64,000 bases of DNA from a virus. Taxonomy: Duplodnaviria > Heunggongvirae > Uroviricota > Caudoviricetes. Shown one piece after another: positions 2,542 to 31,434 of this stretch. Position numbers and translations under genes: made by a program. Within the stretch, counting starts at the first letter, position 1, and each line of letters starts with the position of its first letter. Below the pieces are notes generated by a model. The model was not told the DNA's origin and searched no databases. It saw nothing but the letters and a program-made list of their open reading frames with translations. Location of the stretch: the IMG/VR virus record IMGVR_UViG_3300006143_000275; one strand, 5' to 3'.

Positions 2542-3080
2542 TTGGTTTCCTCCATTCCATTACAAAATTCCACCAGACCGTCAATGACGCTGATCTCGTC
2601 AGAAACGGACTGTTTGGTGGCGTTGATAATTTCCTCGGCCTCCCTGATCTTAATATTCGCGGCCTCAATCGCCTGCTTGAGAGACTCGATGTCCGCATTG
2701 GCCTCGGAGATTTCGGCGTTGCGCTCGCCGACGATTTTGTCACGCGCCGCAGTCAGGGTCTCAATACGCTTTGCGGCGTCGTCCAAAAGATCCTGAACGG
2801 ACTTTCCAGACACCTGGAGAATGCCAGACACAGTTGCCTGCTTCTTGGCGGTCGTCATTTCAGACGGCAGCGTGGCAATGAGCGCCTGGACAGTGAAGAT
2901 AGAGTTGCTCTTATCGCTCAGATCGTTCTGGGCATAAATGTCGCTTACCACGCTCTCTGGAGAACTCACCTCCGCGTCAACATCCGGCAGGTCGCTATCG
3001 ACATTGACAGGCGCTTGATATGTGCTGTCCAGCACCGGAGCTTCGCGCTCAACAAGCCCAATTTTTTCAAATAAATTCAT
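2538..3080 (-). CDS. hypothetical coiled-coil protein
   Basis: 180-aa ORF in operon with the ABC transporter genes; overlapping stops/starts. Confidence 0.35.
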   Translation of the reverse strand: MNLFEKIGLVEREAPVLDSTYQAPVNVDSDLPDVDAEVSSPESVVSDIYAQNDLSDKSNSIFTVQALIATLPSEMTTAKKQATVSGILQVSGKSVQDLLDDAAKRIETLTAARDKIVGERNAEISEANADIESLKQAIEAANIKIREAEEIINATKQSVSDEISVIDGLVEFCNGMEETK

Positions 3081-3733
3081 GTTTCTCCTCCAAGTTTTAT
3101 AATTTTGTCACACATTTTTCGCGCTTCGTCCTCGCTGTGCGTAACCATCACGACGGTGCTGTTTGTTTCCTGATGAATGTCCATAATCAAACGCTGCATC
3201 TTCGCTCTGGTCGCATCATCCAGCGCGGACAGTGGCTCGTCCATAAGCAGATACCGAGGCCGGACAAACAGAACCCTTGCTAACGAAAGGCGCTGCTGCA
3301 TTCCACCGGACAGTTCTGTTGGATACCAATCCATATACTCGCTGAGTCCAACCTGCTCCAAGATTGCCTCTGCAACCGGCTTTAGCTCTTTTCTTTTTCG
3401 CCTCTGCCGTACTGCTATCAGAACATTGTCGATACATGTCAGCCAGTTGAAATTTGTATACCGCTGGTGCATCATATAGATGCCTTTGTCATCGTCAAAT
3501 TGAACGGAACCAGAAAGTGGCTTTATCATTTTGGACACTGTTTTCAGAAGTGTACTTTTGCCGCAACCAGACTTGCCAAGAATACCGTACACGAGGCCAT
3601 CCTCAAACGTCATGCTGATTGGCTCCATTAGAGGCTTTTGATAGCCGATTACCAAATCATTCAAGATTATCATCCAAGTACCTCCATCTGAACACGCGGT
3701 GGATAACCTTGTTCCCGATTTTGTCAAACACAT
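3077..3733 (-). CDS. ABC transporter ATP-binding protein (NitT/TauT-like)
   Basis: Walker A GILGKSGCGKST, ABC signature LSGGMQQRLSLAR, Walker B LLMDEP. Confidence 0.8.
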   Translation of the reverse strand: MCLTKSGTRLSTACSDGGTWMIILNDLVIGYQKPLMEPISMTFEDGLVYGILGKSGCGKSTLLKTVSKMIKPLSGSVQFDDDKGIYMMHQRYTNFNWLTCIDNVLIAVRQRRKRKELKPVAEAILEQVGLSEYMDWYPTELSGGMQQRLSLARVLFVRPRYLLMDEPLSALDDATRAKMQRLIMDIHQETNSTVVMVTHSEDEARKMCDKIIKLGGET

Positions 3734-4400
3734 AGCTGAACAGTACGATCACAATGATTGCAGCAAACACGATTGTCGTTTTACCTCTTGCGGCTCCTAC
3801 ATTTATAATGAATCCAAGACCTCTCTTGGCGTTTGTCGCTTCAACCACAGCAACGTACGTCCATCCGATTCCATACATCATCAGGAAGGAACTCATAATA
3901 GATGGGAGTGCGGCTGGCAGGAGAATTTCCGTAATGATTTCATGCTGGCGCATTCCAATGGACTTCCCTGTATCAATCAAATCCTGTGGAACATCCTCCA
4001 AGCACATGACCGTAGACGGCAGGACATATACGAAGGTGGCCAAAAATAAAAACGAGACCTTCATTGTCTCGTCAATTCCGAACCACAAAATCAGCAGAGG
4101 AGAGAACGCGGTTACAGGTATGTACCGCATGGCAGACACCACTGGCGACACCATGTCTTTCAAGAACTTTACTGAGCAGATCAGCAAGGCGAGCGGAACC
4201 GCTGTTGCCATAGAAAGTAAAGATGCCGCTGTGATTCTGGTAAGAGAATACAGCAGGCCCGGAATGAGCTGCCCTGTTCCGTACAAACCAACCAGTGCTT
4301 TCCATACAGATAGCGGAGACGGAACAAAGAGTGGGATTGTTACCATTGATCCGATCTGCCATACTGCCAAAAGGAGAAGTAATCCGAGGACCTTTTTCAT
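3657..4400 (-). CDS. ABC transporter permease (SsuC/TauC-like)
   Basis: Multi-TM ORF; likely start at the internal MKKVLGLLLLLA (codon 19 of the listed ORF) to avoid overlap with the ATPase gene. Confidence 0.65.
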   Translation of the reverse strand: MKKVLGLLLLLAVWQIGSMVTIPLFVPSPLSVWKALVGLYGTGQLIPGLLYSLTRITAASLLSMATAVPLALLICSVKFLKDMVSPVVSAMRYIPVTAFSPLLILWFGIDETMKVSFLFLATFVYVLPSTVMCLEDVPQDLIDTGKSIGMRQHEIITEILLPAALPSIMSSFLMMYGIGWTYVAVVEATNAKRGLGFIINVGAARGKTTIVFAAIIVIVLFSYVFDKIGNKVIHRVFRWRYLDDNLE

Positions 4401-4407
4401 GATGCAC

Positions 4408-4989
4408 CTACTCGATCCAACACCATATGGTTTCATCATCAATCCGGATGCCATCCGGATTGTCTCGAATTATCTTCGCCAGCTTATCACATTTCCACAA
4501 GGGGTATGGCTCGGTAATATCAATCCCTACATCATCCATATAGGGAAGCTTCGCGGCATCCCCAGGCTCACGGTATTCTTCATATTCCTCATTACTCTCA
4601 ACCCACACGACATCGAAAAGGAACTTCTCTGTGCTGATATCGACAGTAACGCGGCCTTCCTCCCATCTTCGCGTATCCTCAATGCCTTCTGGAGTAACAG
4701 AGAGCAGTCCCTCGTTTCTATCAACTGCATCGCGGAACTTGATACCATCAAATTTGCCGCTTTTGTCCATACGGATTCTGCTCTTTTCCTCGTCATCGAC
4801 ACCAGCTCCAGTAGCCTGCAGGATTTCGACCGCAACGCGCAGAGGATTGATCTCAGTCCTGTTTTTATAGGCTTCGATGACATTCTCCAGTATTCCGAGC
4901 GAGGAGCTTGTGTAGGCAGACCAGTGATAGTATGCGTTGGCGAGCACTTCGCCGTCATAGCATACCTCAAAGTTCAACCGCTGACCCAT
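4408..4989 (-). CDS. hypothetical protein
   Basis: 193-aa ORF, acidic, no recognised motif. Confidence 0.35.
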   Translation of the reverse strand: MGQRLNFEVCYDGEVLANAYYHWSAYTSSSLGILENVIEAYKNRTEINPLRVAVEILQATGAGVDDEEKSRIRMDKSGKFDGIKFRDAVDRNEGLLSVTPEGIEDTRRWEEGRVTVDISTEKFLFDVVWVESNEEYEEYREPGDAAKLPYMDDVGIDITEPYPLWKCDKLAKIIRDNPDGIRIDDETIWCWIE

Positions 4990-5006: not shown

Positions 5007-5447
5007 TTATGTATATAGATGGTACTTTTTACTGATAGAGTGCGCTGTCTCATCTGGCAGAGGAGCAAACCAGATGCCGGTAAGAGTCGTCCCATCGTCT
5101 TCCTCTGGCGTCAGTTCTGTCAGACACTTATCATAAATCAGCCCGAACCCCACCCCTTCGACCAGACCAAGTTCCTCTGCAACGGTCTTCGCCTTCAACA
5201 GGTGACTTTTGTTTCTGGCCTCACAGATGGTCTTGACAAACGAGCCACAGACATAATCCTCAAAAATTTCCTTATCCACATGAACGGAGCAAGTAACAAA
5301 ATCCATTCCGTCATGTGTGATTTTTCGCCTGAGAAGATGCGTCCAATAGGCTTCAGCACAATGCGATACCTGTGCAGCCAGCTTGCCTGGAGACATGGCA
5401 AGGTCTTTTCGCATAATAAACAGACGTCTGTATCCCATTGGCTTCAC
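5007..5447 (-). CDS. peptidyl-tRNA hydrolase PTH2-like protein
   Basis: MRKDLAMSPGKLAAQVSHCA matches the PTH2 family GK(I/L)AAQxxHA motif; true start probably the internal Met near 5414. Confidence 0.5.
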   Translation of the reverse strand: MKPMGYRRLFIMRKDLAMSPGKLAAQVSHCAEAYWTHLLRRKITHDGMDFVTCSVHVDKEIFEDYVCGSFVKTICEARNKSHLLKAKTVAEELGLVEGVGFGLIYDKCLTELTPEEDDGTTLTGIWFAPLPDETAHSISKKYHLYT

Positions 5448-10719: not shown

Positions 10720-11049
10720 TTATCCGTCTCTCCCGTACTCACCAAACGCGACCATCTTGTCTCCACTCGGCGTAGTGAAGTAGTGGGAGTATGATTCCAT
10801 AGAACCCCAGTCACTGTAACCCAAGTGTCGATGATCCTGATATCGGTATTCCTCAGATTCGAGGAGCAGCTTTGAATACGGAACGAGTTTGCCATCGAAG
10901 CAGTCATACATCAGTTCATCCTGCTTGAATTTCTCGTATTCTTCCTGCGTGCAGATAACGATGCTATGCGTGGAGCTGCTGTTTGTTTCAAACACTCCAC
11001 ATCTTACTTGTCTCATACGCTCTCCTTTTTGATTGCGATTAAAACTCAC
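10720..11049 (-). CDS. FETNSSSTH-motif protein (paralog of 15550-16068)
   Basis: N-terminus MRQVRCGVFETNSSSTHS is nearly identical to the N-terminus of the ORF at 15550-16068. Confidence 0.4.
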   Translation of the reverse strand: MSFNRNQKGERMRQVRCGVFETNSSSTHSIVICTQEEYEKFKQDELMYDCFDGKLVPYSKLLLESEEYRYQDHRHLGYSDWGSMESYSHYFTTPSGDKMVAFGEYGRDG

Positions 11050-11803
11050 ATTTTATAGGCCGCGATGTCACATTCTGAAAGAATGGCATCGGCAGGAGCT
11101 TGTGCAGGTTACGCTCGTTCATGGTCTTGATTTTACTGTCAAGCGAAGGATCTCCTGTTGTACCGACCATGATGTACTTGTCGAGCTGCGCATAGGTAAA
11201 ACCGAGATTGTCCTCGTCACTTTTGCCACACAGGCCGTCAGACGGCGTTTTGTCCACCAGTTCACGCGGAATGGGCAATTCGTACCCGATTTGCAGGACT
11301 TCACTCACCAGGAGACTGGCAAGAGGACTGAAATCTCCCGCACTGTCCCCAAACTTTGTGGAATATCCCACATAATCCTCTGAGCCATTACATGTGTTGG
11401 CTACCCGTCCGCCGTTCGGAAGCGACTGCGCAACCGCATACAGTGTTGCCATGCGGATGCGAGCTGGCAGATTTACCTTCGACTGCTCCGTTACAGGCAT
11501 ATAACCGCGAATTTCCAAAGTCAGACGCTCAATCGCTCCTCCGATATTGATAGTGCAGTGCTCAATGCCAAGCGTCTCCACTACCTTTCGGCTGTCCTTG
11601 ATGTCGTGCTGGACACCATTTGGCATCAAAACACCAAATACGCGGTCTTTGCCGAGCGCCTCAACGCACAGGGCGGCGACAATCGAGCTGTCTTTCCCGC
11701 CAGAAATTCCGACAACCGCACTGCACTCCGGGCCGTTTTCCTGAAAATAATCACGAATCCACTGAACGATTGCGTCTTTTGTGTGTTTTGGGTTTGGAAG
11801 CAT
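11039..11803 (-). CDS. nadE: NH3-dependent NAD+ synthetase
   Basis: PP-loop SGGKDSS; C-terminal PSDGL...DE..LG..Y..LD.Y pattern typical of NadE. Confidence 0.75.
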   Translation of the reverse strand: MLPNPKHTKDAIVQWIRDYFQENGPECSAVVGISGGKDSSIVAALCVEALGKDRVFGVLMPNGVQHDIKDSRKVVETLGIEHCTINIGGAIERLTLEIRGYMPVTEQSKVNLPARIRMATLYAVAQSLPNGGRVANTCNGSEDYVGYSTKFGDSAGDFSPLASLLVSEVLQIGYELPIPRELVDKTPSDGLCGKSDEDNLGFTYAQLDKYIMVGTTGDPSLDSKIKTMNERNLHKLLPMPFFQNVTSRPIKCEF

Positions 11804-11806
11804 AAA

Positions 11807-12249
11807 TTACCCCTCTTTTCTCCATAGTTCTACCGTGTATTGCTGGCCAAGAATCTTCTCAATGATTCCGAACACAACACCCCAGTTGCCTCCACCAAGA
11901 CCACATCCAATCTTGTATGGCATTGCAATCGTCTCGCCAGCAGGAACGATCTGTTTTAATTGGAGTAGACACTTTTCAAAAGCTGCATAGTCTGTGTACT
12001 GCCTTCCGTTATAACCGTACTGGTCTTGAGAAAACAGATTGCAAACAACCTGGGGATCAATATTCTTGCCATCAACAGGTGTGCGCCCTCATCGCACCTG
12101 ACCTTATACCATTTGTAAACTGTGGGGAATTTTGTCCTTATCTGCTTTGCGACGCCGCTTCCCATTTTCCCTTGGCAGTTCACTTGGTGGCAAATATAAT
12201 TTGATTTTGTAGAGAACAGGTCTCCATCAATTATTTTGATAGACATCAA
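11807..12249 (-). pseudogene. macro-domain (ADP-ribose binding/processing) gene split by a frameshift
   Basis: Frame A (11956-12249) gives the macro N-terminus IIDGDLFSTKSNYICHQVNCQGKMGSGVAKQI; frame +2 (11807-12088) gives NIDPQVVCNLF...IAMPYKIGCGLGGGNWGVVFGIIEKIL and ends 4 nt before the nadE start. Confidence 0.5.
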
Positions 12250-13772
12250 AATTCCCCTCCATGGAGATTCTGCCGAACCTCATCCAAGGTATAAATTTTG
12301 ATGAACTCCCCATTCTTGAAGACCACCCGTAATTCATTGTTCTCTTGAGCCTCAGCCCAAGTTAGGCCATCCTTATAGATGTAGTTATCACCGTTTTTGA
12401 TCACACGGCAGCAACCCCGCTGAGACTTCTTGAAGTGACCAGTGTCGGTCTTGGGATTCTTGAAAATCATGATGGGCTTGCCGTCTGCATCCTCGGCATA
12501 GGTGGCCTTAACGGCGATACCAAAGGTGTCACGGGTGTATGGTGCGTATGTCTTATTGACAACAGAGATACCGGAAACGGGATTGGGTTCACTTCGTTCC
12601 AAAGTCTCCAAGCACTGCATGGAGAAGGAACCGACGCCAAGGGAGACATTGTTAATGGCAAACCCGTTGGATTCCAGAATCTGATAGATTTGCTTGCATC
12701 GCTGGGGAGTAATGCTGTCACCATACAACGCCTTGACGTGCGGATTCAGCACTTTGAACCCCTTGCTGTTCACGGTGCCTCCAAAAATGTCCCACAGCTT
12801 GAACGCAGTCTTGGTCACGACCTCGACGGGGTCTCCACTGTCTCCACGGATAAGCAGACATCCATCGTGTGCCAGAATCTCGTCTTTGAGCTGCGGCAGG
12901 ATGTTGTCTACCAGATTCCAGTAATCGTAGCTGTCACTGACCATGGAGAAGTTCTGGTGAGGGTAAATCTCGGTCAGCAGACGGCGGATATGGGTGACCT
13001 CGTCACCGTCCATAGCGAAGTTGGAACACATCACGCTGTGTTCGGTGGACAAAGCGCCATAGGCTACCGGCTCCTTAGCACAGTCGCAGTGATAGTTGTC
13101 CTCCAGCCACAGGATTGCGGGAACAGTGGCGGTGTTCAGGAAGCTGAGACAGAAAGCGGCAGAACTTTTGGTGGCGCTCTCCACGCTCTCTTGACCACGC
13201 ATGGAAAAATCGCCAAGGAGTCTGGCGCGGACCACGCTGTCATCACAGGTGCGATCTGTAAACTCGTTGACGATTTGGCGGTAGCGATAGCCGACCTCGG
13301 CGGAAACTTGGGTGTGCCACATGGTGCAGGACAGCATGGTCTCAATGGAGTTCACCAGCCACACAAAGTTCGGATGGGTGTTGGAAATCTCAATTTGCGG
13401 CACCTTGATATTGGTACGCACACCCTCCGGCACGGCCCGAATCTCTAGGGGAAGATAGCCCAAGTCATGAAGAGCTTTCAGGCGCTTTTCTCCAACACCA
13501 TCGGTGTTGATGGTGGCGTTGAGAACCCGCTTATACTCGCTGAGGACATCCTCCCAGTCCTCTTGGAAGAAAAAGTGGTTGAAGGCATCAACGAGGTACT
13601 CCTTGATGAACGCCTGGAGGCCAAACATCGTGACCTTATCTGTGTCTCCCAGCCGGGTCATGCGGGGAGTGTAGTAGGAGACCATCTTGGTCAGGGTCTG
13701 CGGATACTGCTCTGCGTGGGCCGTCTTGTAAAAGTCCAGGCAAAGCAGTGGATTGTAGCAACAACCACTCAT
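12246..13772 (-). CDS. nadV: nicotinamide phosphoribosyltransferase (NAMPT/NadV)
   Basis: 508 aa; N-terminal LDFYKTAHAEQYPQ matches the NAMPT DSYK(V)THyKQYP signature; length typical. Confidence 0.8.
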   Translation of the reverse strand: MSGCCYNPLLCLDFYKTAHAEQYPQTLTKMVSYYTPRMTRLGDTDKVTMFGLQAFIKEYLVDAFNHFFFQEDWEDVLSEYKRVLNATINTDGVGEKRLKALHDLGYLPLEIRAVPEGVRTNIKVPQIEISNTHPNFVWLVNSIETMLSCTMWHTQVSAEVGYRYRQIVNEFTDRTCDDSVVRARLLGDFSMRGQESVESATKSSAAFCLSFLNTATVPAILWLEDNYHCDCAKEPVAYGALSTEHSVMCSNFAMDGDEVTHIRRLLTEIYPHQNFSMVSDSYDYWNLVDNILPQLKDEILAHDGCLLIRGDSGDPVEVVTKTAFKLWDIFGGTVNSKGFKVLNPHVKALYGDSITPQRCKQIYQILESNGFAINNVSLGVGSFSMQCLETLERSEPNPVSGISVVNKTYAPYTRDTFGIAVKATYAEDADGKPIMIFKNPKTDTGHFKKSQRGCCRVIKNGDNYIYKDGLTWAEAQENNELRVVFKNGEFIKIYTLDEVRQNLHGGEF

Positions 13773-13993
13773 TTCTCATCATCCTCACTTTCAACTTTCT
13801 TTCCCGCATAGTAGATTGCAAATGCAAGAGGAGCCACGATAAACCACAAAGCCATGATCCATATTGGTAGATAGTGCATATCTTCCAGGTCGCTATAGCT
13901 GTTCTTTTTATACATCAGGTAGTAGTAAAAACCGCCAAGAGAAGAACCAATCAGAATGTAAGTGATAACAATTAAAACGATTAGAAACAGCAT
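13769..13993 (-). CDS. small membrane protein
   Basis: 74 aa with two hydrophobic helices. Confidence 0.3.
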   Translation of the reverse strand: MLFLIVLIVITYILIGSSLGGFYYYLMYKKNSYSDLEDMHYLPIWIMALWFIVAPLAFAIYYAGKKVESEDDEK

Positions 13994-13995
13994 AT

Positions 13996-14163
13996 TGTCA
14001 CCTCAATAGTGAATTTTCTGGACATAACCACACTTTTTGCAACGGTATATTTCTGTGTATCCAATAGGCATATCCTGTGGAGCCCACTCAGAATAGTTGG
14101 TTACTCTCGTGATATGTTCCCACTCATGTTTGCAAAACAGCGAGCGGATATAGTTGATAAGCC
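13996..14163 (-). CDS. small Zn-ribbon protein (55 aa, not in the ORF track)
   Basis: ATG preceded by AGGAGGTG; MRWLINYIRSLFCKHEWEH...CKKCGYVQKIHY. Confidence 0.25.
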
Positions 14164-14186
14164 ATCTCATCGCGCACCTCCTATGA

Positions 14187-14987
14187 CTACTCTAATACAG
14201 CCACTTTCTCATGTTCACCACGATAGATGCTGTTTGTTGTAAATACTCGTGAAATCTGGCCATCTGTCAACACGGAGCCCTTGAAGATGGTGCTCTCACA
14301 ATGGGACACATACAGAAAAATTTCCTTTGCACCAGCTTCTTTCAGGGCAGCAGCAGTATGGGTAAACGTACCGCCACGGGAGCAAATGTCGTCCACAATA
14401 AGAACATTTCGACCGGCGACCTTCTCACTGTTGGCGAGTTCAAGCCCTTCAATTTTGCCAGTGCGCCAGTCACGGTGCTTGATACCGAACACATACTCCC
14501 GGCCCATCAGGTCGGAGTACCGCTTGGCAGCGCCCTCGTCCGGGTAGCACATCAGAACATCAGTATCGCCTGTATCAGCCATGACACGCTCAATAGCCAG
14601 ACGGATATTGTCCGCAGGCTCCTTCACGCAGATGCGGTCGATAAGCGCTGCCGCCACATTGGAATGTGGATCAAGCACTTCAACCTTACGAAAGTTGAGA
14701 GTGTTAATGAACTCGGCGAACCATTTCAGGGTGAACACCTCGTCGCCGCTCTTGACCCTGTCCATACGAGCATTGGGAATGTACGGCAAAACGAGCTCAA
14801 TATCCACACCCATCCGATTGTTCGCCCGAATGTGATGCACCAAATGCCACAGGAGCATACACTCGTGGTCGCCATCATACCGCCACTCAATACGGAACCA
14901 GACAGCGTCTTTGGTATCAAGGCGGAAGGATGTGGTCCCGTCTGGGAACTGCGTAAAGTTAACAGGGGTTCTGTTCACCAGAATCAT
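14187..14987 (-). CDS. prs: ribose-phosphate pyrophosphokinase (PRPP synthetase)
   Basis: PRPP-binding loop VLIVDDICSRGGTFTHTAAALKEAGA; about 266 aa. Confidence 0.75.
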   Translation of the reverse strand: MILVNRTPVNFTQFPDGTTSFRLDTKDAVWFRIEWRYDGDHECMLLWHLVHHIRANNRMGVDIELVLPYIPNARMDRVKSGDEVFTLKWFAEFINTLNFRKVEVLDPHSNVAAALIDRICVKEPADNIRLAIERVMADTGDTDVLMCYPDEGAAKRYSDLMGREYVFGIKHRDWRTGKIEGLELANSEKVAGRNVLIVDDICSRGGTFTHTAAALKEAGAKEIFLYVSHCESTIFKGSVLTDGQISRVFTTNSIYRGEHEKVAVLE

Positions 14988-14990
14988 GTC

Positions 14991-15539
14991 TTACTCCTCC
15001 CAGTTCTCAATGTTGATTTGACACATCTTCATGGCCTTGAGGGCATTTTCGTGGCTCTCTGGTGTCACGCCAGCGCAGCAAGCGGCATCCACCGTAATTT
15101 TGACTTCCGGCAAAAACGCTTTAAGCAGCAGCGCGTTGGAAATGACACAGATATCGGTGCAGAGGCCGACCAGGACAATCTCGTCAATATGGCTCGACAC
15201 GCTGTTTTTAATGCGCAGGTACTCGCCAAGTTCAATAGAGCCAAACGTTTTCTTTCTGAAAGTAGAAGTCCACTCCTCCTTGTCTACGATTGCATTGAAA
15301 AGCACATCAGGGGCGCACCAGCCCTCGGTCTTATCAATGCAGTGCTCAACGGGGAGCATCTTCCCTTCCTGCGTCTCCAGATAGTCCTTATCGTGGGTAT
15401 CAAAGGTTGCAAGGATCTCGCCGTCAAACTCTTCGGCTTTCGCAACAACCTTCGGCAGAATCGCCTGCGCCTCTTTGGTGCCAAGAGACCCATCAATGAA
15501 ATCGTTTTGCATATCAACAATGACCAATACCTTACTCAT
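14991..15539 (-). CDS. pncA: nicotinamidase / isochorismatase-family hydrolase
   Basis: VLVIVDMQNDF signature; start taken at the internal MSKVLVIV. Confidence 0.7.
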   Translation of the reverse strand: MSKVLVIVDMQNDFIDGSLGTKEAQAILPKVVAKAEEFDGEILATFDTHDKDYLETQEGKMLPVEHCIDKTEGWCAPDVLFNAIVDKEEWTSTFRKKTFGSIELGEYLRIKNSVSSHIDEIVLVGLCTDICVISNALLLKAFLPEVKITVDAACCAGVTPESHENALKAMKMCQINIENWEE

Positions 15540-15549
15540 ATGTACCTCC

Positions 15550-16068
15550 TTAGTTCCCCTTGTAGTAAAATTCGTGCCGGTAATCGACATGGAAATTTTC
15601 CACGCGATCATCGTCAATTTCATCACTTGTTGTTAAAACAACGCTTTTATCGGAGAATAAATAACGGAGCAGCCGCCCGCTGCTCCGAAGTATTCCGTCC
15701 ACGAACCTCAGATGATCGTCCTCACCAGCATGATCGACAAAAGCATTAACGCAATAAACGCCGCTTCCATATCTGTGATAGGTGGCCTTTTCAAACTCAC
15801 ATTGAACACCAACTTTCATCAGTTCTTCCATAATCCATGTCTTTGCGTTCTCTGCCTTTTTCATTTCATAAAGCGACAGGATACTGGAGTATAAATACGC
15901 AGCCTTATCCTCGACTGACCGCAGTTCAGCAGGCTCTCGGCCAAAATCGTCACATCGAAAATACACCTTTTCTGGATATTCTAGTTCAGCCTTCCTGTCC
16001 GTCACAATACAAATACAGTGGGTGCTGCTGGAATTGGTCTCAAACACCGAATTTCGTACTTGCCGCAT
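15550..16068 (-). CDS. FETNSSSTH-motif protein (paralog of 10720-11049)
   Basis: MRQVRNSVFETNSSSTH N-terminus; the listed ORF is over-extended upstream, start taken at M63. Confidence 0.4.
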   Translation of the reverse strand: MRQVRNSVFETNSSSTHCICIVTDRKAELEYPEKVYFRCDDFGREPAELRSVEDKAAYLYSSILSLYEMKKAENAKTWIMEELMKVGVQCEFEKATYHRYGSGVYCVNAFVDHAGEDDHLRFVDGILRSSGRLLRYLFSDKSVVLTTSDEIDDDRVENFHVDYRHEFYYKGN

Positions 16069-17570: not shown

Positions 17571-17594
17571 GAAGAAGACCCCTTTCTGTTGAAT

Positions 17595-17669
17595 TGGTGA
17601 CCCGGACGGGAGTCGAACCCGCGTTACCAGAGTGAAGGTCTGGTGTCTTAACCGCTTGACTACCGGGCC
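17595..17669 (-). tRNA. tRNA-Glu (anticodon TTC)
   Basis: Cloverleaf read by eye; T-loop GGTTCGACTCC; encoded CCA. Confidence 0.6.
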
Positions 17670-17672
17670 GTA

Positions 17673-17748
17673 TGGTCTGAGTGGGGAGGATCGAACTCCC
17701 GGCCTCGTGATCCCAAATCACGCGCTCTGCCAACTGAGCTACACCCAG
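17673..17748 (-). tRNA. tRNA-Pro (anticodon TGG)
   Basis: Anticodon loop TTTGGGA; T-arm GGGAGTTCGATCCTCCC; CCA. Confidence 0.6.
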
Positions 17749-17752
17749 ATAT

Positions 17753-17919
17753 TGTGCGGGCGGGGATTTTCACCCCGCATAGGTAAGATTATGTACCTGC
17801 TACCGAGCTTGTCGCCCATCGGCTACTTCACCGAACCCAAACAGGAGGACAACGATGGACTCGAACCATTGTCTTACCCTACCTCTCGTTATAGCGTCTA
17901 CCTATTCCGCCACCGCACA
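17753..17919 (-). ncRNA. atypical tRNA-like element, about 167 nt, with a tRNA-Leu-type D-arm and a large internal insertion
   Basis: 5' TGTGCGG pairs perfectly with 3' CCGCACA; D-arm GTGGCGGAATAGGTAGACGC matches tRNA-Leu; internal T-arm-like GGACAACGATGGACTCGAACCATTGTC; no clean anticodon arm. Confidence 0.3.
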
Positions 17920-17935
17920 TTTTGTATTGTGTAGC

Positions 17936-17970
17936 TCTAAAAACAGGACTCCCGCAGGCGAGCGTCCCTG
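17936..17970 (-). terminator. rho-independent terminator (minus strand)
   Basis: Hairpin CAGGGACGCTCGCCTGCGGGAGTCCTG followed by TTTTT on the minus strand. Confidence 0.45.
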
Positions 17971-18039
17971 TAAACCTGCTACACTCGGTTTTGAGCGTGC
18001 CCATCCCGCAGGGCGGCGGGGTGCTCCGTGTACTTTGGA

Positions 18040-18073
18040 GCAAAGAAAAAGATCGTGCCGAGAACTACGGCAC
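18040..18073 (-). terminator. rho-independent terminator after tRNA-Gly (minus strand)
   Basis: Hairpin GTGCCGTAGTTCTCGGCAC then TCTTTTTCTTTG on the minus strand. Confidence 0.5.
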
Positions 18074-18075
18074 GC

Positions 18076-18151
18076 TGGAGTGAGAGACGGGACTTGAACC
18101 CGCAGCTTCCGACTTGGAAGGACGGCACTCTGCCAGTTGAGTTACTCCCAC
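18076..18151 (-). tRNA. tRNA-Gly (anticodon TCC)
   Basis: Anticodon loop CTTCCAA; T-arm GCGGGTTCAAGTCCCGT; CCA. Confidence 0.55.
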
Positions 18152-18154
18152 AGA

Positions 18155-18574
18155 TGGTGGAGCCGGCGGGAATCGAACCCGCGTCCGAAATTCCTACATG
18201 AGCAAGACCTTTTTACGCAATAGGTTTCCTTTTAGGTGGATGCCTTATGGCGGGGCACCAAGATGGAATCCAAATCTACCCCAGGGCGTACCAGTTAAGT
18301 ACACCTCCACCACCTTGTCTTTTTGAACAGATTACAAGGAAAACTGTTTTTCTGGCGTATCCTCGACCGCAGGTACTTACCCAGCCAGAGGTGTACCGTT
18401 TTGGAATCCTGCCGACAGTTAAGCGGCGACCCTCTCTGCCATGAAGGCGGCGAAAGCGGGATGGATCATAACAACACTCATATCATTGTCATTTCATTTT
18501 TTGTTTAGCCTTAAGGCGGTCTCTACCTGCGAATCTTACTCTCTCAGAACCCCGTCGAAACCTTTACGGCCCCG
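18155..18574 (-). ncRNA. ssrA: tmRNA (ssrA)
   Basis: 5' end GGGGCCGTAAAGGTTTCGACGGGG matches the tmRNA 5' consensus GGGGCUGAUUCUGGAUUCGACGGG; 3' end GGACGCGGGTTCGATTCCCGCCGGCTCCACCA matches the tmRNA tRNA-like 3' end; the termini pair as an acceptor stem; about 420 nt; internal short ORF ending VAA-TAA. Confidence 0.6.
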
Positions 18575-18677
18575 TAAAAGAGGCCCGGCGTATAGCCGGG
18601 CCGTTCCCCACATTGTTATAGACCGCATGGGTGCGCTGTCTTATTAAATACCATGTTTGCACGTTCCCCTTTCGGGG

Positions 18678-18753
18678 TGGAGCTGGTAACAGGAGTCGAA
18701 CCCGCGACACTCGGAGTACAAAACCGATGCTCTACCAACTGAGCTATACCAGC
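18678..18753 (-). tRNA. tRNA-Thr (anticodon TGT)
   Basis: D-arm GCTCAGTTGGTAGAGC; anticodon loop TTTGTAC; CCA. Confidence 0.55.
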
Positions 18754-18756
18754 AAA

Positions 18757-18832
18757 TGGAGCTGATGCACGGACTCGAACCGCGAACCTAAGCTTTACGA
18801 AAGCCTCGCTCTGCCATTAGAGCTACATCAGC
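18757..18832 (-). tRNA. tRNA-Thr (anticodon CGT)
   Basis: Anticodon stem AGGCT/AGCTT with loop TTCGTAA; T-arm CGCGGTTCGAGTCCGTG; CCA. Confidence 0.55.
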
Positions 18833-18836
18833 ATGT

Positions 18837-18911
18837 TGGCTGGGGTGACTGGATTCGAACCAGCGAATGAGGGAGTCAAAGTCCCTTGCCTTGCCGCTTG
18901 GCGACACCCCA
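18837..18911 (-). tRNA. tRNA-Gln (anticodon TTG)
   Basis: 5' U, 3-bp D-stem, anticodon loop CTTTGAC; CCA. Confidence 0.55.
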
Positions 18912-18916
18912 ATATT

Positions 18917-18942
18917 GGGAGCGGTCGAATTGACCGCTCCGT
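18917..18942 (-). terminator. perfect 9-bp hairpin between the metallophosphatase gene and the tRNA cluster (terminator or processing site)
   Basis: GGAGCGGTC-GAATT-GACCGCTCC. Confidence 0.35.
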
Positions 18943-18946
18943 AGGA

Positions 18947-19621
18947 CTATACAAGCATTACCTTATTGTATAAGGCAATGAATTGATCATTCATAATTTT
19001 GTCGATATGGTAGTGTCCAAAATACCAACGTTTGAACTGAAGGTCAACCATAATACGCTCCAGATAGCTTACGAGCGGATCATTTTCATACCAATCTGCA
19101 ATCATGGTCTGAATGCTTCTTGGCGCACAGTGCGTTAACACATAATCAACAGACCATCCGTTGTTATCAAGCGCGTTGATCCCCCGTTCCATCTCTTCCA
19201 TAGATGGCATTTCGTCTTTCCACCAAGAAATATGTTCTGTACGATATTCTTTGTCATGAGATCTTGCACCGCCCATCACAAAGAACCTTTGCCCGTCGAT
19301 GGTCAGAACTTGTCCTCTCTCCAGATGGTAAATATTTGGCGCTATTTCTCGGACTTTACCACCGAACTTATCTTGAAGCGAAAATTTGCGGAGGATATCA
19401 AAATTCTCATGGTTCCCATCGATCCAGAGCGTGGTGAAGTTTTTACCCGCGAGCCATTTTTTCCACCATATCTCTCGTGTAGAACCGTCCCATATGAGCC
19501 CAAAATCCCCACAGACAATTAAATAATCCTTCTTAGTGAGCGATTTTTGCATCGGGAAGTTCTTGACAGACAACTTTTTTATGTCAATGTCCGCATGAGT
19601 ATCCCCTGTCACATAGATCAT
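18947..19621 (-). CDS. calcineurin-like metallophosphoesterase (phage Ser/Thr phosphatase-like)
   Basis: GDTHAD, GDFG, GNHEN motifs. Confidence 0.6.
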   Translation of the reverse strand: MIYVTGDTHADIDIKKLSVKNFPMQKSLTKKDYLIVCGDFGLIWDGSTREIWWKKWLAGKNFTTLWIDGNHENFDILRKFSLQDKFGGKVREIAPNIYHLERGQVLTIDGQRFFVMGGARSHDKEYRTEHISWWKDEMPSMEEMERGINALDNNGWSVDYVLTHCAPRSIQTMIADWYENDPLVSYLERIMVDLQFKRWYFGHYHIDKIMNDQFIALYNKVMLV

Positions 19622-21643: not shown

Positions 21644-22783
21644 TTATGCGGCCAAATCCTCATGGATGGTACGCATTACGTCCGTTTGATATTTTTCGTT
21701 GTTGTACTTGATGACCTCGTCAACATACTTTTCTTCAACCATCCGGTAGTAGTTGATAAGGCCGCGCAAAACCTGAACATCGTGCAGTTCCCAGACAATT
21801 CCGTTCTTACGGTCGAGGATGTAGTTGCTGATCATTGCACGAAAACGCTGCTTGTTCTTGTGACCGATGGTGATCTCATTGTCCTTATTGAGCATGAGCC
21901 CGAGGTTCCAATTACTGCCGGCTCTGGAACCATACCTCGTCTTCTCATCCTTGATCTTGAACGGCGCATGGAAATCATCCAGCGTCTGATTGATGAAGTC
22001 GATGACCTTATTGTAGTCAAACTCTCTCCGGCTTGAAATTAGAGAGTCGTCTGCGTATCTGGTGTAAACGAACGACTGCCCGTTAAAATCACGCAGGGTA
22101 TTGTATACCTTGTGATCAAGGGGGATCATCATCAGATTTGTGAGCATCGGAGAAATCGGCGTGCCCTGCGGCAATCCGCCATGAAGAAAACAGAGGTTGA
22201 GTGCCTTGTCCAGTGCTGCTCTGCCCCGTTCTGACTTGACAATCTCGCTGAACGGGAAAATCAAAGAGAGCGAATACCGAAGGAATACCAGCGTTGTGTC
22301 CCCAAAAAAGTTCGAGAAATCCGTCTTTAAGAACCAATGACTGTCATTCCTCTGGTGACGTTTGATGGCGTCAATGGTGGAACGATTCTTAACATAGGCA
22401 AAGGCGGAGGTGTGGTACAGCGCAAACATCTTGGTCTCAAACAAAGTCTTCAGATTCCGAAGCGCCGTCATCAGTTCTGGCACAGGGGCATTGATCTCAC
22501 GCAGGCCGCCGGACTTCTTCGGAATATGGAATGTGGTATAGAGGGCTTCTCTCGGAACGGCATACAGCTCGGCATTTTGTTCGCAAAAACTCTCCAGAGC
22601 GGAGACCATACCGGCGAAATCGAACCGATCCAGAAACTGTGGCTTGAGTCGCTGTGCGAAATGCGTTCTGGTATTGGTGCTGTTTGAAGTTATCATAGAC
22701 TGCATGTTGACCTCACCAGATATGATTTCCTCAAATGATATCTGATGGTATGCAGGCGATTGCATGACGGTTATGTATGGCAT
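21644..22783 (-). CDS. reverse transcriptase (retron / group II-like RT domain, standalone)
   Basis: RT motifs YTTFHIPKKSGGLREINAP, GLPQGTPISPMLTNLMM and YTRYADDSLIS (YxDD box); 379 aa; no maturase/endonuclease or RNase H extension. Confidence 0.8.
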   Translation of the reverse strand: MPYITVMQSPAYHQISFEEIISGEVNMQSMITSNSTNTRTHFAQRLKPQFLDRFDFAGMVSALESFCEQNAELYAVPREALYTTFHIPKKSGGLREINAPVPELMTALRNLKTLFETKMFALYHTSAFAYVKNRSTIDAIKRHQRNDSHWFLKTDFSNFFGDTTLVFLRYSLSLIFPFSEIVKSERGRAALDKALNLCFLHGGLPQGTPISPMLTNLMMIPLDHKVYNTLRDFNGQSFVYTRYADDSLISSRREFDYNKVIDFINQTLDDFHAPFKIKDEKTRYGSRAGSNWNLGLMLNKDNEITIGHKNKQRFRAMISNYILDRKNGIVWELHDVQVLRGLINYYRMVEEKYVDEVIKYNNEKYQTDVMRTIHEDLAA

Positions 22784-23082
22784 ATTTTTAATACCTCCTG
22801 ATGTCTGTATTCTGGTATACAGTAGGTTGAGGAATTCAGGATGCGATGGGTACTTGAGAGCTGGGACTGAGTGCGGGCTCGGTGGGTAATCTGGTGAGTG
22901 ATTTGCGGCGGTCCGATGGTTCTTGGGGTCGCCATCTGTCTTCCTGTTTGCTGTCCGTCACCTTTCTGGTCGAGATGTCAAGAGTTCTTTGCGTATTTGG
23001 AGCAGTAGAAAACAGTTTATTTATTACCTCTTGACCTCGGTGGCGGGCAGGCGCCTTCAGATTCCGCCTCCGGGCGGGGTGT

Positions 23083-23128
23083 CCCTTCTCCCAGCCATGC
23101 GCAACTCTGATTTACAATACAGAGCACC
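23083..23128. repeat. conserved hairpin motif copy C (start of the RT leader)
   Basis: TCCCTTCTCCCAGCCATGCGCAACTCTGATTTACAATACAGAGCACC. Confidence 0.55.
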
Positions 23129-23227
23129 CTCAGAATAACTCTGAAAGTAATGCAATACAGACTATATGGAAGGGGCAGCGGCAACCAAAGCCACTGCCCC
23201 TATAGAACTATCGTAAAACGTGATGCC

Positions 23228-23899
23228 TTACACGGCGATCACGTCGAATTCAAAAGCATCCACAAGAATCATCTTGCGGAGTTTCTCGCCCTTCACGAAG
23301 TTGATGAAGTTGGCTACGCCGTAGGCAACGATCGTTCGCACCGTCGGAACAACCGACAGTGTGATATTGCAGGCAGAAACGGGCGTCGCCTCTTTTGCCT
23401 CATCATGAGAGAACGCCATGCTGTCGATAAAGTTCTCCACCATCTTCTTGTCGCTCCAGTCAGCGGCATAGTGCTGGGCGTCCGTCAGCCGCATCCGGAA
23501 GTCGAACATCCCCTTGACGAACGTGTTCTCCTTACAGGAGGTGGCGATCTCCCGGCGGAGGTCAATGTTGTCCACCGCCAGGAACACATAACCGGAGAGA
23601 CGCTGGCCTGTCCAGCCCTCTTTGACCAGCTTCAGATCGGGGGCGCAGTCCGGATTGATCTCGGTGAGATACTCAGCCAAAGCATCAACCTTGGCCTTGC
23701 CGATATCCGTATTCCGGAACATCTGGTTGGCAATGTTGTGGGCTTCTACGGTATCGAAGTCATACAGCGTGATTTTCGTAATGCCGAACCGCACCAGATT
23801 CTCAGCGACCGTGGAACCAATCGCTCCACAGCCGATGATATGAATCCGCGATTCGAGCATATCCGGCTTGAAGAATTCGTAGGACTTCGCCAAATCCAT
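23228..23899 (-). CDS. ThiF/MoeB-family E1-like adenylyltransferase
   Basis: Rossmann IHIIGCGAIGSTVAENLVRFGITKITLYDFDTVE; 223 aa. Confidence 0.7.
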   Translation of the reverse strand: MDLAKSYEFFKPDMLESRIHIIGCGAIGSTVAENLVRFGITKITLYDFDTVEAHNIANQMFRNTDIGKAKVDALAEYLTEINPDCAPDLKLVKEGWTGQRLSGYVFLAVDNIDLRREIATSCKENTFVKGMFDFRMRLTDAQHYAADWSDKKMVENFIDSMAFSHDEAKEATPVSACNITLSVVPTVRTIVAYGVANFINFVKGEKLRKMILVDAFEFDVIAV

Positions 23900-23916
23900 T
23901 GTTTGTCTCTCCTTTC

Positions 23917-24789
23917 TTACTGTCCGAGGTATAGGCGGTCATAGGGATCGTCTTCGTCGAATTGGTAGTCGGAAAAGGACCGGCCAATGCCGGTATCACC
24001 TCCGTTTACCTTCGGTTTTGTTTTGACTCCGACGACGCTCGCACCGGCCGTCGCCGCCGGCGTTGTTGTCTGACTGATGGGTGTGACGACCCGCGTCTGC
24101 GTCTGCTGATAGGTTCCCTGAAAACCGGTGACAGGCTTATAGGTTCTGTTGGTGACGATCTCCTTGGCGCTGCTGATGAAAGCCTGAAGATCCACGCCGA
24201 CATCTCCAATATACACATCAACATCTGCCGTGTCGTACAGGGTGTTGTTCTTCAGATCGAAGATGCGGACAAAGTGCTCGTACCGCTTGTTCCAGATCAT
24301 GAAGATGTAGTAGTCGTCATCGGAGATTTGCTCCAGAATCTTCTCCTGGTGAGTTGTGTCCACACCAGAGGGAGACACGCCCATATTGACGTGGCTGTGT
24401 CCTTGCATCCGGATGTTATTGAACACATCATCATCAAAGGAGTAAAGCCACGTCTGGTACGCCTCTTGATCGGTGTTGACCGTTGCGCCGGTAACAACCT
24501 GCGGGTATACCAAAATGTCGGTGATGTGGAAGATGGACGGATCCTGCTCATCACGGTGAACCACGCCGTGCCACGCGACCTCGTCGTTGAACTGCTGAAT
24601 GAGCGAGTTCATCTTGGCGAAGGCAATCGAGGACAGGTAGACAGTTGCCCGGTCGTCATCGCCCTCCCACTTGAACGTCCGGCTGTATTCCAGCTTTCCG
24701 TCAAACATCTTGGTGGACTTCACCTTTGCGATGAACTCCTCCTGAATTTTTTGCAGCAGCTCGTCCGTGAGCTTAATGGGCTTACTCAT
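23917..24789 (-). CDS. JAB/MPN (JAMM) metalloprotease-domain protein
   Basis: JAMM motif GHSHVNMGVSPSGVD (HxHx7Sx2D) with an upstream Glu; start taken at MSKPIKLTDELL. Confidence 0.65.
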   Translation of the reverse strand: MSKPIKLTDELLQKIQEEFIAKVKSTKMFDGKLEYSRTFKWEGDDDRATVYLSSIAFAKMNSLIQQFNDEVAWHGVVHRDEQDPSIFHITDILVYPQVVTGATVNTDQEAYQTWLYSFDDDVFNNIRMQGHSHVNMGVSPSGVDTTHQEKILEQISDDDYYIFMIWNKRYEHFVRIFDLKNNTLYDTADVDVYIGDVGVDLQAFISSAKEIVTNRTYKPVTGFQGTYQQTQTRVVTPISQTTTPAATAGASVVGVKTKPKVNGGDTGIGRSFSDYQFDEDDPYDRLYLGQ

Positions 24790-26275
24790 GGCTCTCCTCC
24801 TGTTCTTTTTCTTTCTTCGCCTTGACATCTTGTTCCTCCAACCACAATACGGCCTCAAACGGCGTCTTGGTCGTACCGTCGGGCATTTCGATTACCTTAC
24901 CGATCCTGTTCGAGAACAGCAACTGCGTCATCTTGCCGGTTGTTGCGCTCTCCTGAACATTGACGCTCTTTGCCGACTGAACACAAGCAGCTACCGCGCC
25001 GACATAATCCCGGTTACGCATAGATTGGCGAATTGTCGCCTCATTTCCACCAAGGCAGTGAAACGCCTGGATGTGCTGGTTCGGCGTGTGATCCATGATG
25101 ATATCCGACGGGAAATCGTATCCGCTAATCCCGGCGTACCTGCCGTTATCGAAGTTCAGCGAATATGCGGCGCAAATGCGAATCTTCATCGTCTCTTTGA
25201 CGAAAATCTCCGTCATCAGACGCTTAATGCGCTCTACCGTCATATTTTCGTTGTCACGATATTCATAGATGTAGCTACGGTTATTCTGAATGACGGACTC
25301 CGCTGCGTCAGGATCGAAGTTTGCAACCGTGGTGGTTACAATGAACTTGATTTCGCCATTGTATACGCTGACCAGATGCAGCGAATTGTTGCATAGGAAG
25401 TAGTCCAAAAGCTCGCTGCTCTCCGCGCCGCCTCCGTGTGTGATTTTATCGACCAGACCGCACTCCTGCGTTCTCAGGTCGTCCATCTGCTGGTAGTAAT
25501 TGGAGAAAGTGCTCTCCAAATCACGCATCCTGCGATCCATATCGTTGATCTGGCTGCGGACGGACTCCAGCTTCCGGCGGTCAAAGTGTGTTTCAAAGCC
25601 GGTCAACTGATTGCGGATAACCTGTGACCGGAAGTCAAACCGCTTGGCGAACTCCTGAATCTTCGTTTCATAGCTGGGGGCGTAACGCTTTGTGAGCGTC
25701 TTGACGATCTCAATCTCCTCGTCAGTCATCGGATTGGACTCGAAGTACCACGGGAAGTAGCGGGAAATCAGAGACTCCAGCATGTGCCACCGCTTCATGT
25801 TCATCTTTTCCGTGAAGATGATGGTGTTGCGGTACTCCTCGTTCACATAGACCTTGGCGCGGAACTTTGCGTCGCTCTCAATCCATGCGGACAGATCCGC
25901 CAGGAGCTTGTATCCAGAGACTGTCTTTGGAACACCTTCAACGAGTTTCTCGAAGCAGGTTGTGTTGCTCTCGTCGCTCCCCTCAAATGAATGGATGAGC
26001 AAAATGCCGGTTGAACCATCCATAATCGGAGTTCGGTTAAAGAAAGCCCTGACGCAGTCTCTCGGAGACGAGCCAGATAACTGCCCGGAACTGTAGTCTG
26101 TGCTTTTATATCGCAGTGTGATTGACTCCTCTTTCGGAACCCTGCTATACAGCAAAGCTCTCAAGGTCGCAACGAACGACTCGTCATTGCGGAACTTATC
26201 TCCGCCGATATTCGGGAATACGGTCGATGCGATCTCATTGGTGAGAGTCAGACCAGTGATTTCTTTTGAGAACAT
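24782..26275 (-). CDS. large hypothetical protein (497 aa) in the E1/JAB operon; possible E2-like region
   Basis: C-terminal DHTPNQHIQAFHC loosely resembles the UBC HPN...C catalytic motif (weak). Confidence 0.35.
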   Translation of the reverse strand: MFSKEITGLTLTNEIASTVFPNIGGDKFRNDESFVATLRALLYSRVPKEESITLRYKSTDYSSGQLSGSSPRDCVRAFFNRTPIMDGSTGILLIHSFEGSDESNTTCFEKLVEGVPKTVSGYKLLADLSAWIESDAKFRAKVYVNEEYRNTIIFTEKMNMKRWHMLESLISRYFPWYFESNPMTDEEIEIVKTLTKRYAPSYETKIQEFAKRFDFRSQVIRNQLTGFETHFDRRKLESVRSQINDMDRRMRDLESTFSNYYQQMDDLRTQECGLVDKITHGGGAESSELLDYFLCNNSLHLVSVYNGEIKFIVTTTVANFDPDAAESVIQNNRSYIYEYRDNENMTVERIKRLMTEIFVKETMKIRICAAYSLNFDNGRYAGISGYDFPSDIIMDHTPNQHIQAFHCLGGNEATIRQSMRNRDYVGAVAACVQSAKSVNVQESATTGKMTQLLFSNRIGKVIEMPDGTTKTPFEAVLWLEEQDVKAKKEKEQEESHE

Positions 26276-31348: not shown

Positions 31349-31434
31349 AGAGAGTGGTGGGAATCGAACCCACGCAGCGCATATCCGGTTGACAGGCATG
31401 TATCTGCCCCGCTCTGCCACTGAGCTACACTCTC
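31349..31434 (-). tRNA. tRNA of uncertain identity (about 86 nt) with an apparently 8-nt anticodon loop and a long variable region
   Basis: Canonical acceptor, D-arm (GCTCAGTGGCAGAGC) and T-arm (GTGGGTTCGATTCCCAC); best anticodon stem GGCAG/CTGTC encloses ATACATGC; no encoded CCA. Confidence 0.35.

Follow-up and report, generated by a model that had tools for sequence, protein, structure and literature searches.

We report that a 64,000-nucleotide stretch of phage DNA (IMG/VR record IMGVR_UViG_3300006143_000275; hereafter the window, meaning this stretch at its full length) encodes a complete one-piece transfer-messenger RNA (tmRNA, ssrA) within a cluster of tRNA genes. The RNA has a conserved fold, and its internal reading frame specifies a tag peptide that is under purifying selection. 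Judged from the sequence, it is likely (probability roughly 0.8) to be a functional tmRNA that would give the phage extra ribosome rescue with a tag of its own. Phage tmRNAs as a kind are already known. What appears to be new is a lineage with no counterpart among 50,697 GenBank phage records, a tag of 21-23 residues, and an invariant G-rich linker, AAGGUGGUGGAGG.

Identification of the tmRNA gene

Both ARAGORN and Rfam cmscan called a tmRNA at window 18155-18573 on the minus strand. The match to RF00023 scored 96.1 bits against a gathering score of 47 (E 3.2e-36) and covered model positions 1-374 of 374. The first-pass annotation of this DNA had proposed a minus-strand tmRNA of about 420 nt between tRNA-Gly and tRNA-Thr and had named these two tools as the check; the gene that they found lies there and is 419 nt long, and both end sequences quoted in that annotation are present. 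The ends pair as an acceptor stem, as had been claimed: GGGGCCG pairs with CGGCUCC over 7 bp that include a G3:U pair, followed by a 3' ACCA. The molecule also has the other traits of a one-piece tmRNA: its T-arm carries a GUUCRAnUC-type loop, and a long connector helix (P2) replaces the anticodon arm. The identification as a phage-encoded one-piece tmRNA is correct. The parts of the gene are as follows; PK1 to PK4 denote the pseudoknots of the tmRNA plan.

18155..18573, minus strand: complete one-piece tmRNA (ssrA), 419 nt, with an encoded CCA end (RF00023 and ARAGORN)
18546..18573, minus strand: 5' half of the tRNA-like domain, with the GGGGCCG acceptor strand, the GGUUUCGAC loop and the P2a 5' strand
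18419..18490, minus strand: tag frame from the resume codon GAC to the stop TAA, encoding DNDMSVVMIHPAFAAFMAERVAA and preceded by the A-rich tract AAAAAAUGAAAU
18411..18426, minus strand: helix 5 hairpin (GCCG/CGGC) with the stop codon in its loop
18223..18397, minus strand: pseudoknot-rich region with PK2, PK3, PK4 and an extra hairpin
18304..18316, minus strand: family-specific G-rich linker AAGGUGGUGGAGG between PK3 and PK4
18155..18220, minus strand: 3' half of the tRNA-like domain, with the P2 3' strands, the T-arm GCGGG/CCCGC, the acceptor 3' strand and ACCA

Two other architectures were rejected. The model for permuted two-piece tmRNA (RF04321) scored 43 bits, below its gathering score of 47, and its match spans tRNA-Thr and the 5' part of the tmRNA, which marks it as an adjacency artefact. 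A mini-tmRNA consisting of the tRNA-like domain only, as in mycobacteriophage DS6A, is ruled out by the full mRNA-like domain with its conserved frame.

A tag reading frame under purifying selection

Relatives were collected by running a codon-degenerate pattern of the tag core over viral contigs, species genomes and metagenomes, and the matches were filtered for a true tmRNA context. The resulting family comprises 43 loci. They hold 29 distinct sequences, of which 27 are complete (404-431 nt). Family members score 81-94 bits with RF00023 and are 65-82% identical to the window's tmRNA, except for locus L095, from the same phage, at 99%.

The tag frame occupies tmRNA positions 84-155, with its stop at window 18419-18421 (tmRNA 153-155). 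An internal short frame ending VAA-TAA near 18420 had already been noted in the first-pass annotation, and it proved to be a real tag. The frame is open in all 29 distinct sequences, the sole indel being 6 nt. Over the 18-codon core, the ratio of nonsynonymous to synonymous change (pN/pS) was 0.16 in frame, compared with 1.37 and 2.54 in the shifted frames, indicating that the tag peptide is under purifying selection. The residues M, I, H, P, A, F, A, A and R and the final Ala-Ala are invariant despite many synonymous changes, and MIHPAFAAF, the hydrophobic and aromatic core, shows little or no variation among RNAs that are only about 65% identical. Tags in the family are 21-23 residues long; the window's has 23.

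The position of the frame is that of a tmRNA tag: it has no start codon, follows PK1 and the A-rich tract, encodes a hydrophobic-Ala-Ala end, and stops in helix 5. The GAC codon is aligned to the consensus resume codon in the Rfam alignment, its context (UGA-AAU-GAC) is of the type seen in bacterial tmRNAs (UAA-ACU-GAC), and ARAGORN calls DDTVVMIHPAFAAFVANRVAA (positions 85-150) with a GAC resume codon in 14 relatives. As these three lines agree, we assign GAC as the resume codon, and the appended tag is Ala plus DNDMSVVMIHPAFAAFMAERVAA; the first-pass annotation had left both to be identified. This tag differs from all bacterial tags found in the present comparison, and our literature search found no paper containing the tag string.

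For the window itself, ARAGORN reported a different tag, AVEDTPEKQFSL, at gene positions 204-242 in the PK2/PK3 region, which we reject as an artefact. That frame is broken in relatives by indels that are not multiples of three, and it is wholly changed in L095, which has a 1-nt indel and is 99% identical. The frame given in the first-pass annotation is the better one for the window.

Conserved secondary structure

We examined base pairing in an alignment of the 27 complete family sequences (alignment A3), counting 65 pairs in 11 helices: P1, P2a-c, the PK1 hairpin, PK2 stem 1, PK3 stem 2, three helices of the PK4 region, and the T-arm. Standard pairs were found in 97.9% of cells, compared with 39-48% when partners were slid by 1-3 columns. 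Compensatory changes occurred at 22 pairs, as against 1-3 in the slid controls, and none of 500 shuffles matched the observed values for pairing and compensation. The remaining stems were searched sequence by sequence because the MAFFT register is unreliable in pseudoknot loops.

In the tRNA-like domain, G3:U70, the alanine identity element, is invariant (27/27), as is the ACCA end. The acceptor pair 6:430 changes from C:G to A:U, with compensation, in 13 of the 27 sequences. Three compensatory pairs support the T-arm GCGGG/CCCGC, and P2a, P2b and P2c together have 22 pairs, with four compensatory ones in P2b.

In the mRNA-like domain, the hairpin that holds the stop codon is complementary in every family member, in versions as different as UGCUUGA/UUGAGCA, CCGCC/GGUGG and UUGCU/AGCAG. 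Compensatory pairs number three in the PK1 hairpin stem and five in PK2 stem 1, and PK2 stem 2, PK3 stem 1 and PK4 stem 2 occur across the family in many differing yet complementary versions. Pseudoknots and a tag frame, on which the first-pass call had been made to hinge along with a model hit, are present: both stems of PK2 to PK4 are supported, PK1 is supported in its hairpin stem, and the tag frame is in place.

The G-rich linker

The linker AAGGUGGUGGAGG is identical in all 27 complete family sequences, and none of the 17 comparison tmRNAs from outside the family has it. Over 14 pairs, the linker complements the tag codons GCUUUCGCCGCCUU that encode AFAAF (98.9% of cells paired, against 41-67% when slid). 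It is also complementary to the 3' end CUCCACCA over 8 bp, and it contains a Shine-Dalgarno-like GGAGGUG. A 14-bp helix between tag and linker, predicted by RNAalifold, was not accepted, because it lacks compensatory changes, has an invariant 3' strand and overlaps two helices that covary. The lack of compensatory change follows from one strand never varying, and a 7-bp core (UUYGCYG/UGGUGGA) would fit alongside the covarying helices. Ala codons within the linker-complementary stretch are almost all GCY, whereas the Ala codon outside it is mostly GCA. This bias is suggestive but weak.

Location in a clade of large gut phages

The window derives from a phage: its terminase large subunit, portal, exonuclease, NAMPT and PRPP-synthase-like protein match phage protein families. 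The source is an uncultured gut phage of about 141 kb. An exact protein match to the gene adjoining the RNA cluster was found in about 240 blocks of a public assembly collection. Contigs with this gene reach 141.5 kb, as in Ga0080692_1000031, and have the gene order of the window, and the tmRNA is 100% identical in six independent assemblies. It lies mid-contig with phage genes on either side on the same strand and no smpB beside it, an arrangement kept by synteny in relatives; an integrase-family (recombinase) gene at 41140-42003 is 22 kb away. Given this phage gene context, the recurrence in assemblies and the distance of the integrase-family gene, we regard the tmRNA as an internal phage gene rather than a host ssrA at a prophage edge.

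Wherever neighbouring genes are on record, the other family copies also lie amid homologues of the window's genes, with exonucleases 54-68% and terminases 31-43% identical. On the sequences at hand, the family is one clade of large gut phages, known so far from phage contigs only. Across this clade the tmRNA is stable and always lies within large tRNA arrays. A megablast search with 20 kb gave no DNA-level relative among GenBank phages, and blastn matches of the tmRNA to the 50,697 GenBank phage records were confined to the universal 3' 35-45 nt.

The host is probably a gut member of the Firmicutes. Hints are limited to the portal, which is 30-40% identical to its counterparts in large siphoviruses of Firmicutes and on a human faecal contig, and to the label of one family locus, L047, a 168-kb contig binned as a Butyricicoccus metagenome-assembled genome with a tmRNA identical to that of viral contigs L007 and L019. 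The tag-core pattern matched L047 and two chance sequences among 185,579 species genomes. It occurred in no bacterial chromosome among these species representatives; the pattern is codon-strict, and absence is no proof.

The 5' 24-mer of the window's tmRNA occurs in 42 IMG/VR contigs. Most of these carry tmRNAs of about 350 nt with short tags directly beside smpB, and this adjacency identifies them as bacterial loci. On one viral-database contig, an RT-2 RNA (RF03077, 153 bits; L029:8909-9173) lies about 4 kb from a bacterial-type tmRNA, an unrelated association.

Most relatives also encode a ROOL RNA (RF03087, 325-406 bits), at a distance of about 0.1-1.5 kb from their tmRNA. The two share one tRNA array of up to 27 tRNAs, usually in the order ROOL, tRNA-Ala, tRNA-Ile, tmRNA, tRNA-Pro, tRNA-Asn, tRNA-Met. 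No ROOL RNA was found within the window's 64 kb. ROOL loci in relatives include the following, among others.

L043:9400-9988
L044:2520-3108
L045:904-1492
L061:4569-5167
L087:6022-6620
L090:2663-3261
L098:4665-5253

A 123-kb contig, L124, carries a metallophosphoesterase identical to the window's and a tmRNA that is only 84% identical and of the type found in L037, with an extra tRNA-Ser (L124 10001-12000 against window 17590-19621). From this mismatch, the RNA island either evolves faster than its flanking genes or has been exchanged between related phages. Another viral contig, of 104.6 kb, holds a 316-nt tmRNA with the tag DNDYFENYLAA amid 13 tRNAs (L042:2025-2340); it is 49% identical to the window's and probably represents a second, separate phage lineage.

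The tRNA cluster and its spacers

The six flanking tRNAs (Glu, Pro, Gly, two Thr and Gln) were found by ARAGORN and Rfam at exactly 17595-18911, where the first-pass annotation had placed them. It had counted five more elsewhere, a number that needs correcting: both tools find six (two Leu, Ala, Ile, Met and an odd 86-nt tRNA), for a total of 12 in the phage window. The tRNAs of the cluster and the element directly 5' of the tmRNA are listed here.

17595..17748, minus strand: tRNA-Pro (UGG) and tRNA-Glu (UUC), which close the cluster on its downstream side
18076..18151, minus strand: tRNA-Gly (UCC), 3 nt downstream of the tmRNA's CCA
18582..18602, minus strand: hairpin rich in G+C, with a U-run after it, directly 5' of the tmRNA
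18678..18911, minus strand: tRNA-Gln (UUG), tRNA-Thr (CGU) and tRNA-Thr (UGU), upstream of the tmRNA; the tRNA-Thr nearest to it is at 18678-18753

In the window and its relatives, the tmRNA is separated from adjacent tRNAs by spacers of 3-12 nt. The encoded tRNAs mostly have U34 anticodons, which read codons ending in A or G, and would fit codon supply no less well than evasion of defences. The hairpin at 18582-18602 looks like a terminator or attenuator. It belongs to a leader (window 18574-18677, minus strand) that is conserved in L037:1676-1875, with a TATAAC box and a hairpin whose stem is kept while its loop has changed; this leader may combine a promoter and an attenuator. In L037 and L124, a tRNA-Ser (GCU) is inserted between the leader hairpin and the tmRNA.

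The 327-nt spacer between tRNA-Gly and tRNA-Pro (window 17749-18075, minus strand) contains a terminator-like hairpin at 18054-18074 and a tRNA-like remnant, in which GGCGGAAUAGGUAGACGC resembles a D-arm and a hairpin at 17848-17873 a T-arm. The remnant was called as a tRNA by none of the tools and is probably a decayed tRNA gene; the same spacer measures just 24 nt in L037. The 86-nt tRNA at window 31349-31434 (minus strand) directly adjoins tRNA-Ala and has a long variable arm. ARAGORN gives it a four-base anticodon, 'acat', with no amino acid, and Rfam scores it as tRNA at 46.4 bits. It may represent a tRNA of an unusual or frameshift type, or the call may be mis-folded.

Proposed mechanism of ribosome rescue

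Trans-translation and the recognition of a C-terminal (A)LAA are established knowledge (PMC3985003). In the mechanism that we propose, the phage tmRNA is probably co-transcribed with the neighbouring tRNAs and excised by host tRNA-processing enzymes, a mode of release suggested by the short spacers. Host alanyl-tRNA synthetase would charge it via the G3:U70 pair, and host SmpB together with EF-Tu would deliver it to ribosomes that have stalled on mRNAs that are broken or lack a stop codon. Such a ribosome would then move to the internal frame at GAC, append Ala and DNDMSVVMIHPAFAAFMAERVAA, and halt at UAA, leaving the ribosome freed and the truncated protein labelled. The Ala-Ala C-terminus suggests that the labelled protein would still go to host ClpXP-type proteases. 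During infection, the phage would supply the cell with added ribosome-rescue capacity and with its own tag.

No SmpB was detected in Pfam scans of about 72 of the 91 open reading frames called in the window, and neither the window nor any family locus gave a match to E. coli SmpB in tblastn at E <= 10. The query was validated by about 25 matches, with E around 1e-35, beside bacterial-type tmRNAs. Because no phage SmpB was found in the sequence searched, the phage RNA would have to rely on host SmpB, alanyl-tRNA synthetase and EF-Tu.

Several points weigh against this reading. The SmpB search covered 64 kb of a phage of about 141 kb, and the fit with host SmpB and alanyl-tRNA synthetase is presumed from the conserved tRNA-like domain. 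The knot-forming stem of PK1 is weak, with four invariant pairs in 20 of the 27 sequences. The terminator-like hairpin directly 5' of the tmRNA complicates co-transcription with the upstream tRNAs. Furthermore, the tag ends in VAA or IAA rather than LAA and is 2-3 times longer than bacterial tags at smpB-ssrA loci (8-17 residues), and for these two reasons its fate may differ.

Neighbouring genes

The first-pass annotation had linked the RNA cluster to a PTH2-like gene, which was borne out by a match to PF01981 (E 2.4e-12; 47.5 bits against a cutoff of 23). This protein also matches phrog_1866 (function unknown). Separately, a run of NAD-metabolism genes at window 11039-15626 (minus strand) resembles the NAD+ salvage or regeneration set reported for some phages. 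These genes and two from a further block are listed below.

5007..5447, minus strand: PTH2-like gene (peptidyl-tRNA hydrolase 2 family), 146 aa, 13 kb from the cluster
11039-11803, minus strand: NAD synthase
12246-13772, minus strand: NAMPT
14187-14987, minus strand: PRPP-synthase-like gene
about 14991-15626, minus strand: isochorismatase/nicotinamidase-family gene, from Pfam marks on identical contigs
21644-22783, minus strand: reverse transcriptase (RVT_1)
23228-23899, minus strand: ThiF/E1-like protein

The reverse transcriptase and the ThiF/E1-like protein form a block with two large proteins that lack Pfam matches (window 21644-26275, minus strand). This block is 67-90% identical in L057 (345-4988), where it lies close to that phage's tmRNA. 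ABC-transporter ATPase and permease domains are encoded at or near the left end of the window (199-4454, minus strand), together with an NMT1/THI5-like binding domain and an OmpA-like domain; such genes are unusual phage cargo. The 531-aa protein encoded at 199-1794 matches phrog_25518 (E 6e-192).

Alternative interpretations

The first-pass annotation had suggested that the tmRNA, the tRNAs and the PTH2-like gene may act against ribosome-stalling or tRNA-targeting defences. Cast as a dedicated counter-defence, this toolkit would overcome host immunity based on cutting mRNAs or tRNAs or on stalling ribosomes. Stalled ribosomes would be cleared and cut tRNAs replaced, the opponents being toxin RNases, anticodon nucleases and CRISPR-associated RNases; mRNA cleavage by toxins such as RelE does yield trans-translation substrates (PMC3985003). 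All three components do occur together in one phage, with 12 tRNAs, and the genes for NAD salvage are close by. Gene sets of this type are associated with counter-defence in other phages. However, a tmRNA that is stable clade-wide within tRNA arrays suits general translational upkeep equally well, and upkeep of ribosome rescue during infection accounts for the same data. To our knowledge, the window's tRNA set is not enriched for known nuclease targets. Counter-defence would in any case be a special case of ribosome rescue and not a separate mechanism; the idea is plausible, but we consider such a dedicated role unlikely.

The tag might instead serve a purpose other than disposal, through routing to Lon or FtsH or by marking or sequestering host proteins. 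Its length, beyond the range of bacterial tags, and its near-invariant core, found in no bacterial chromosome searched, would fit such a role. A combined switch of tag and protease has a precedent in Mycoplasma (PMC3985003, citing Gur and Sauer 2008 and Ge and Karzai 2009). On the other hand, the Ala-Ala end is kept in all copies, as in an ordinary ClpX-type degron, tag length varies widely among bacteria, and a codon-strict genome scan could miss a bacterial counterpart. We regard a different purpose as quite improbable.

A broader version would join this idea to the linker and the RNA island. The tag would act beyond routine disposal, through a protease switch or by re-routing rescued host polypeptides, the linker would clamp or regulate the frame by pairing with the tag codons, and the tmRNA would form a takeover module with ROOL RNA and the tRNA array. 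We offer this combination as speculation with little likelihood.

A decaying passenger, or a decoy that titrates SmpB as proposed for the DS6A mini-tmRNA, is very improbable: phage tmRNAs reduced to the tRNA-like domain are known, and their expression in E. coli inhibits tmRNA (PMC4131195, PMC11915505), but here structure and tag peptide are both under purifying selection and the mRNA-like domain is complete. That the gene is host DNA, either bacterial ssrA at a prophage edge or a chimeric assembly, is largely refuted, since the bacterial smpB-ssrA loci that share its 5' 24-mer in the viral database and the integrase-family gene in the window are outweighed by the same-strand phage surroundings without smpB, the repetition of the arrangement in independent assemblies up to 141.5 kb, an identity of just 38-49% to comparison tmRNAs outside the family, and the restriction of family copies with recorded neighbours to the same phage clade.

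Comparison with known tmRNAs

Our preferred reading, a functional tmRNA used for ribosome rescue, can be set against tmRNAs already described. Phage tmRNAs are uncommon, as the first-pass annotation had stated: they occur in 402 of 18,146 isolate phage genomes (~2%), a count that takes in the two-piece tmRNA of Melnitz (PMC9004378), and 7 of 788 gut viral genomes have one (PMC12291355). They are documented in the mycobacteriophages Bxz1, Cali, Catera, Rizal, ScottMcG, Spud and Wildcat and in Bacillus phage G, with no function demonstrated experimentally for these cultured-phage tmRNAs (PMC4131195). Like them, the present tmRNA is a complete gene in a large phage genome. The cultured tmRNA phages are also rich in tRNA genes. 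Unlike theirs, however, our tmRNA comes from another host group, bears no sequence relationship to them, carries another tag, and is accompanied by ROOL RNA in relatives.

The metagenomic 'huge phages' (Al-Shayeb et al. 2020, PMC7162821) are likewise uncultured and carry tmRNA within a translation gene set, which was interpreted in terms of ribosome rescue; they exceed 200 kb and some encode SmpB, whereas the phage studied here is about 141 kb with no SmpB found. In the marine phage Melnitz and pelagiphages, the phage ssrA is also unlike the host's, and the idea advanced was that it keeps hijacked translation running or tags host proteins (PMC9004378). The Melnitz tmRNA is a permuted two-piece form with a glutamine riboswitch, while the window's is a standard one-piece molecule.

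Bacterial tmRNAs at smpB-ssrA loci are about 350 nt long, with tags such as DNNNYQLLAA and ANNNRLVAA. The phage RNA shares with those carrying its 5' 24-mer the ends of the tRNA-like domain, the stop-NNU/ACU-GAC context, an apparent four-pseudoknot plan and the Ala-Ala C-terminus. It differs from them in being 38-49% identical and 50-80 nt longer, in having the linker, and in lacking an adjacent smpB. The Mycoplasma tmRNA has an extended tag ending in AFA that is degraded by Lon, which shows that a tag can evolve together with a change of protease (PMC3985003). The phage tag resembles it in length and in its aromatic and hydrophobic residues but retains the canonical Ala-Ala end.

ARAGORN missed the tmRNA in 27 of 44 family copies (loci L007, L019, L037, L043-L047, L050, L051, L056, L057 and others), which Rfam scored at 81-94 bits, and it gave a wrong tag in three (the window, L095 and L120). 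The 'huge phages' study used ARAGORN (PMC7162821), as did the other surveys cited here. Because surveys based on this program undercount or mis-annotate such genes, published phage tmRNA frequencies are lower bounds.

Significance for phage biology

The family ties a tmRNA to the ROOL-tRNA islands found in gut phages. If the broader version outlined above were true, tmRNA, ROOL RNA and tRNA array would together be a phage module for translation takeover. We know of no experiment that has shown the function of a phage tmRNA, and a widespread gut phage family would offer a practical handle on that role. The diagnostic C-terminal peptides predicted from the tag are ...MIHPAFAAFMAERVAA and ...VVMIHPAFAAFMAERVAA. 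Tag peptides of the form ...MIHPAFAAF(M/V)AER(V/I)AA in metaproteomes or infected cultures would reveal the targets of the phage tmRNA directly.

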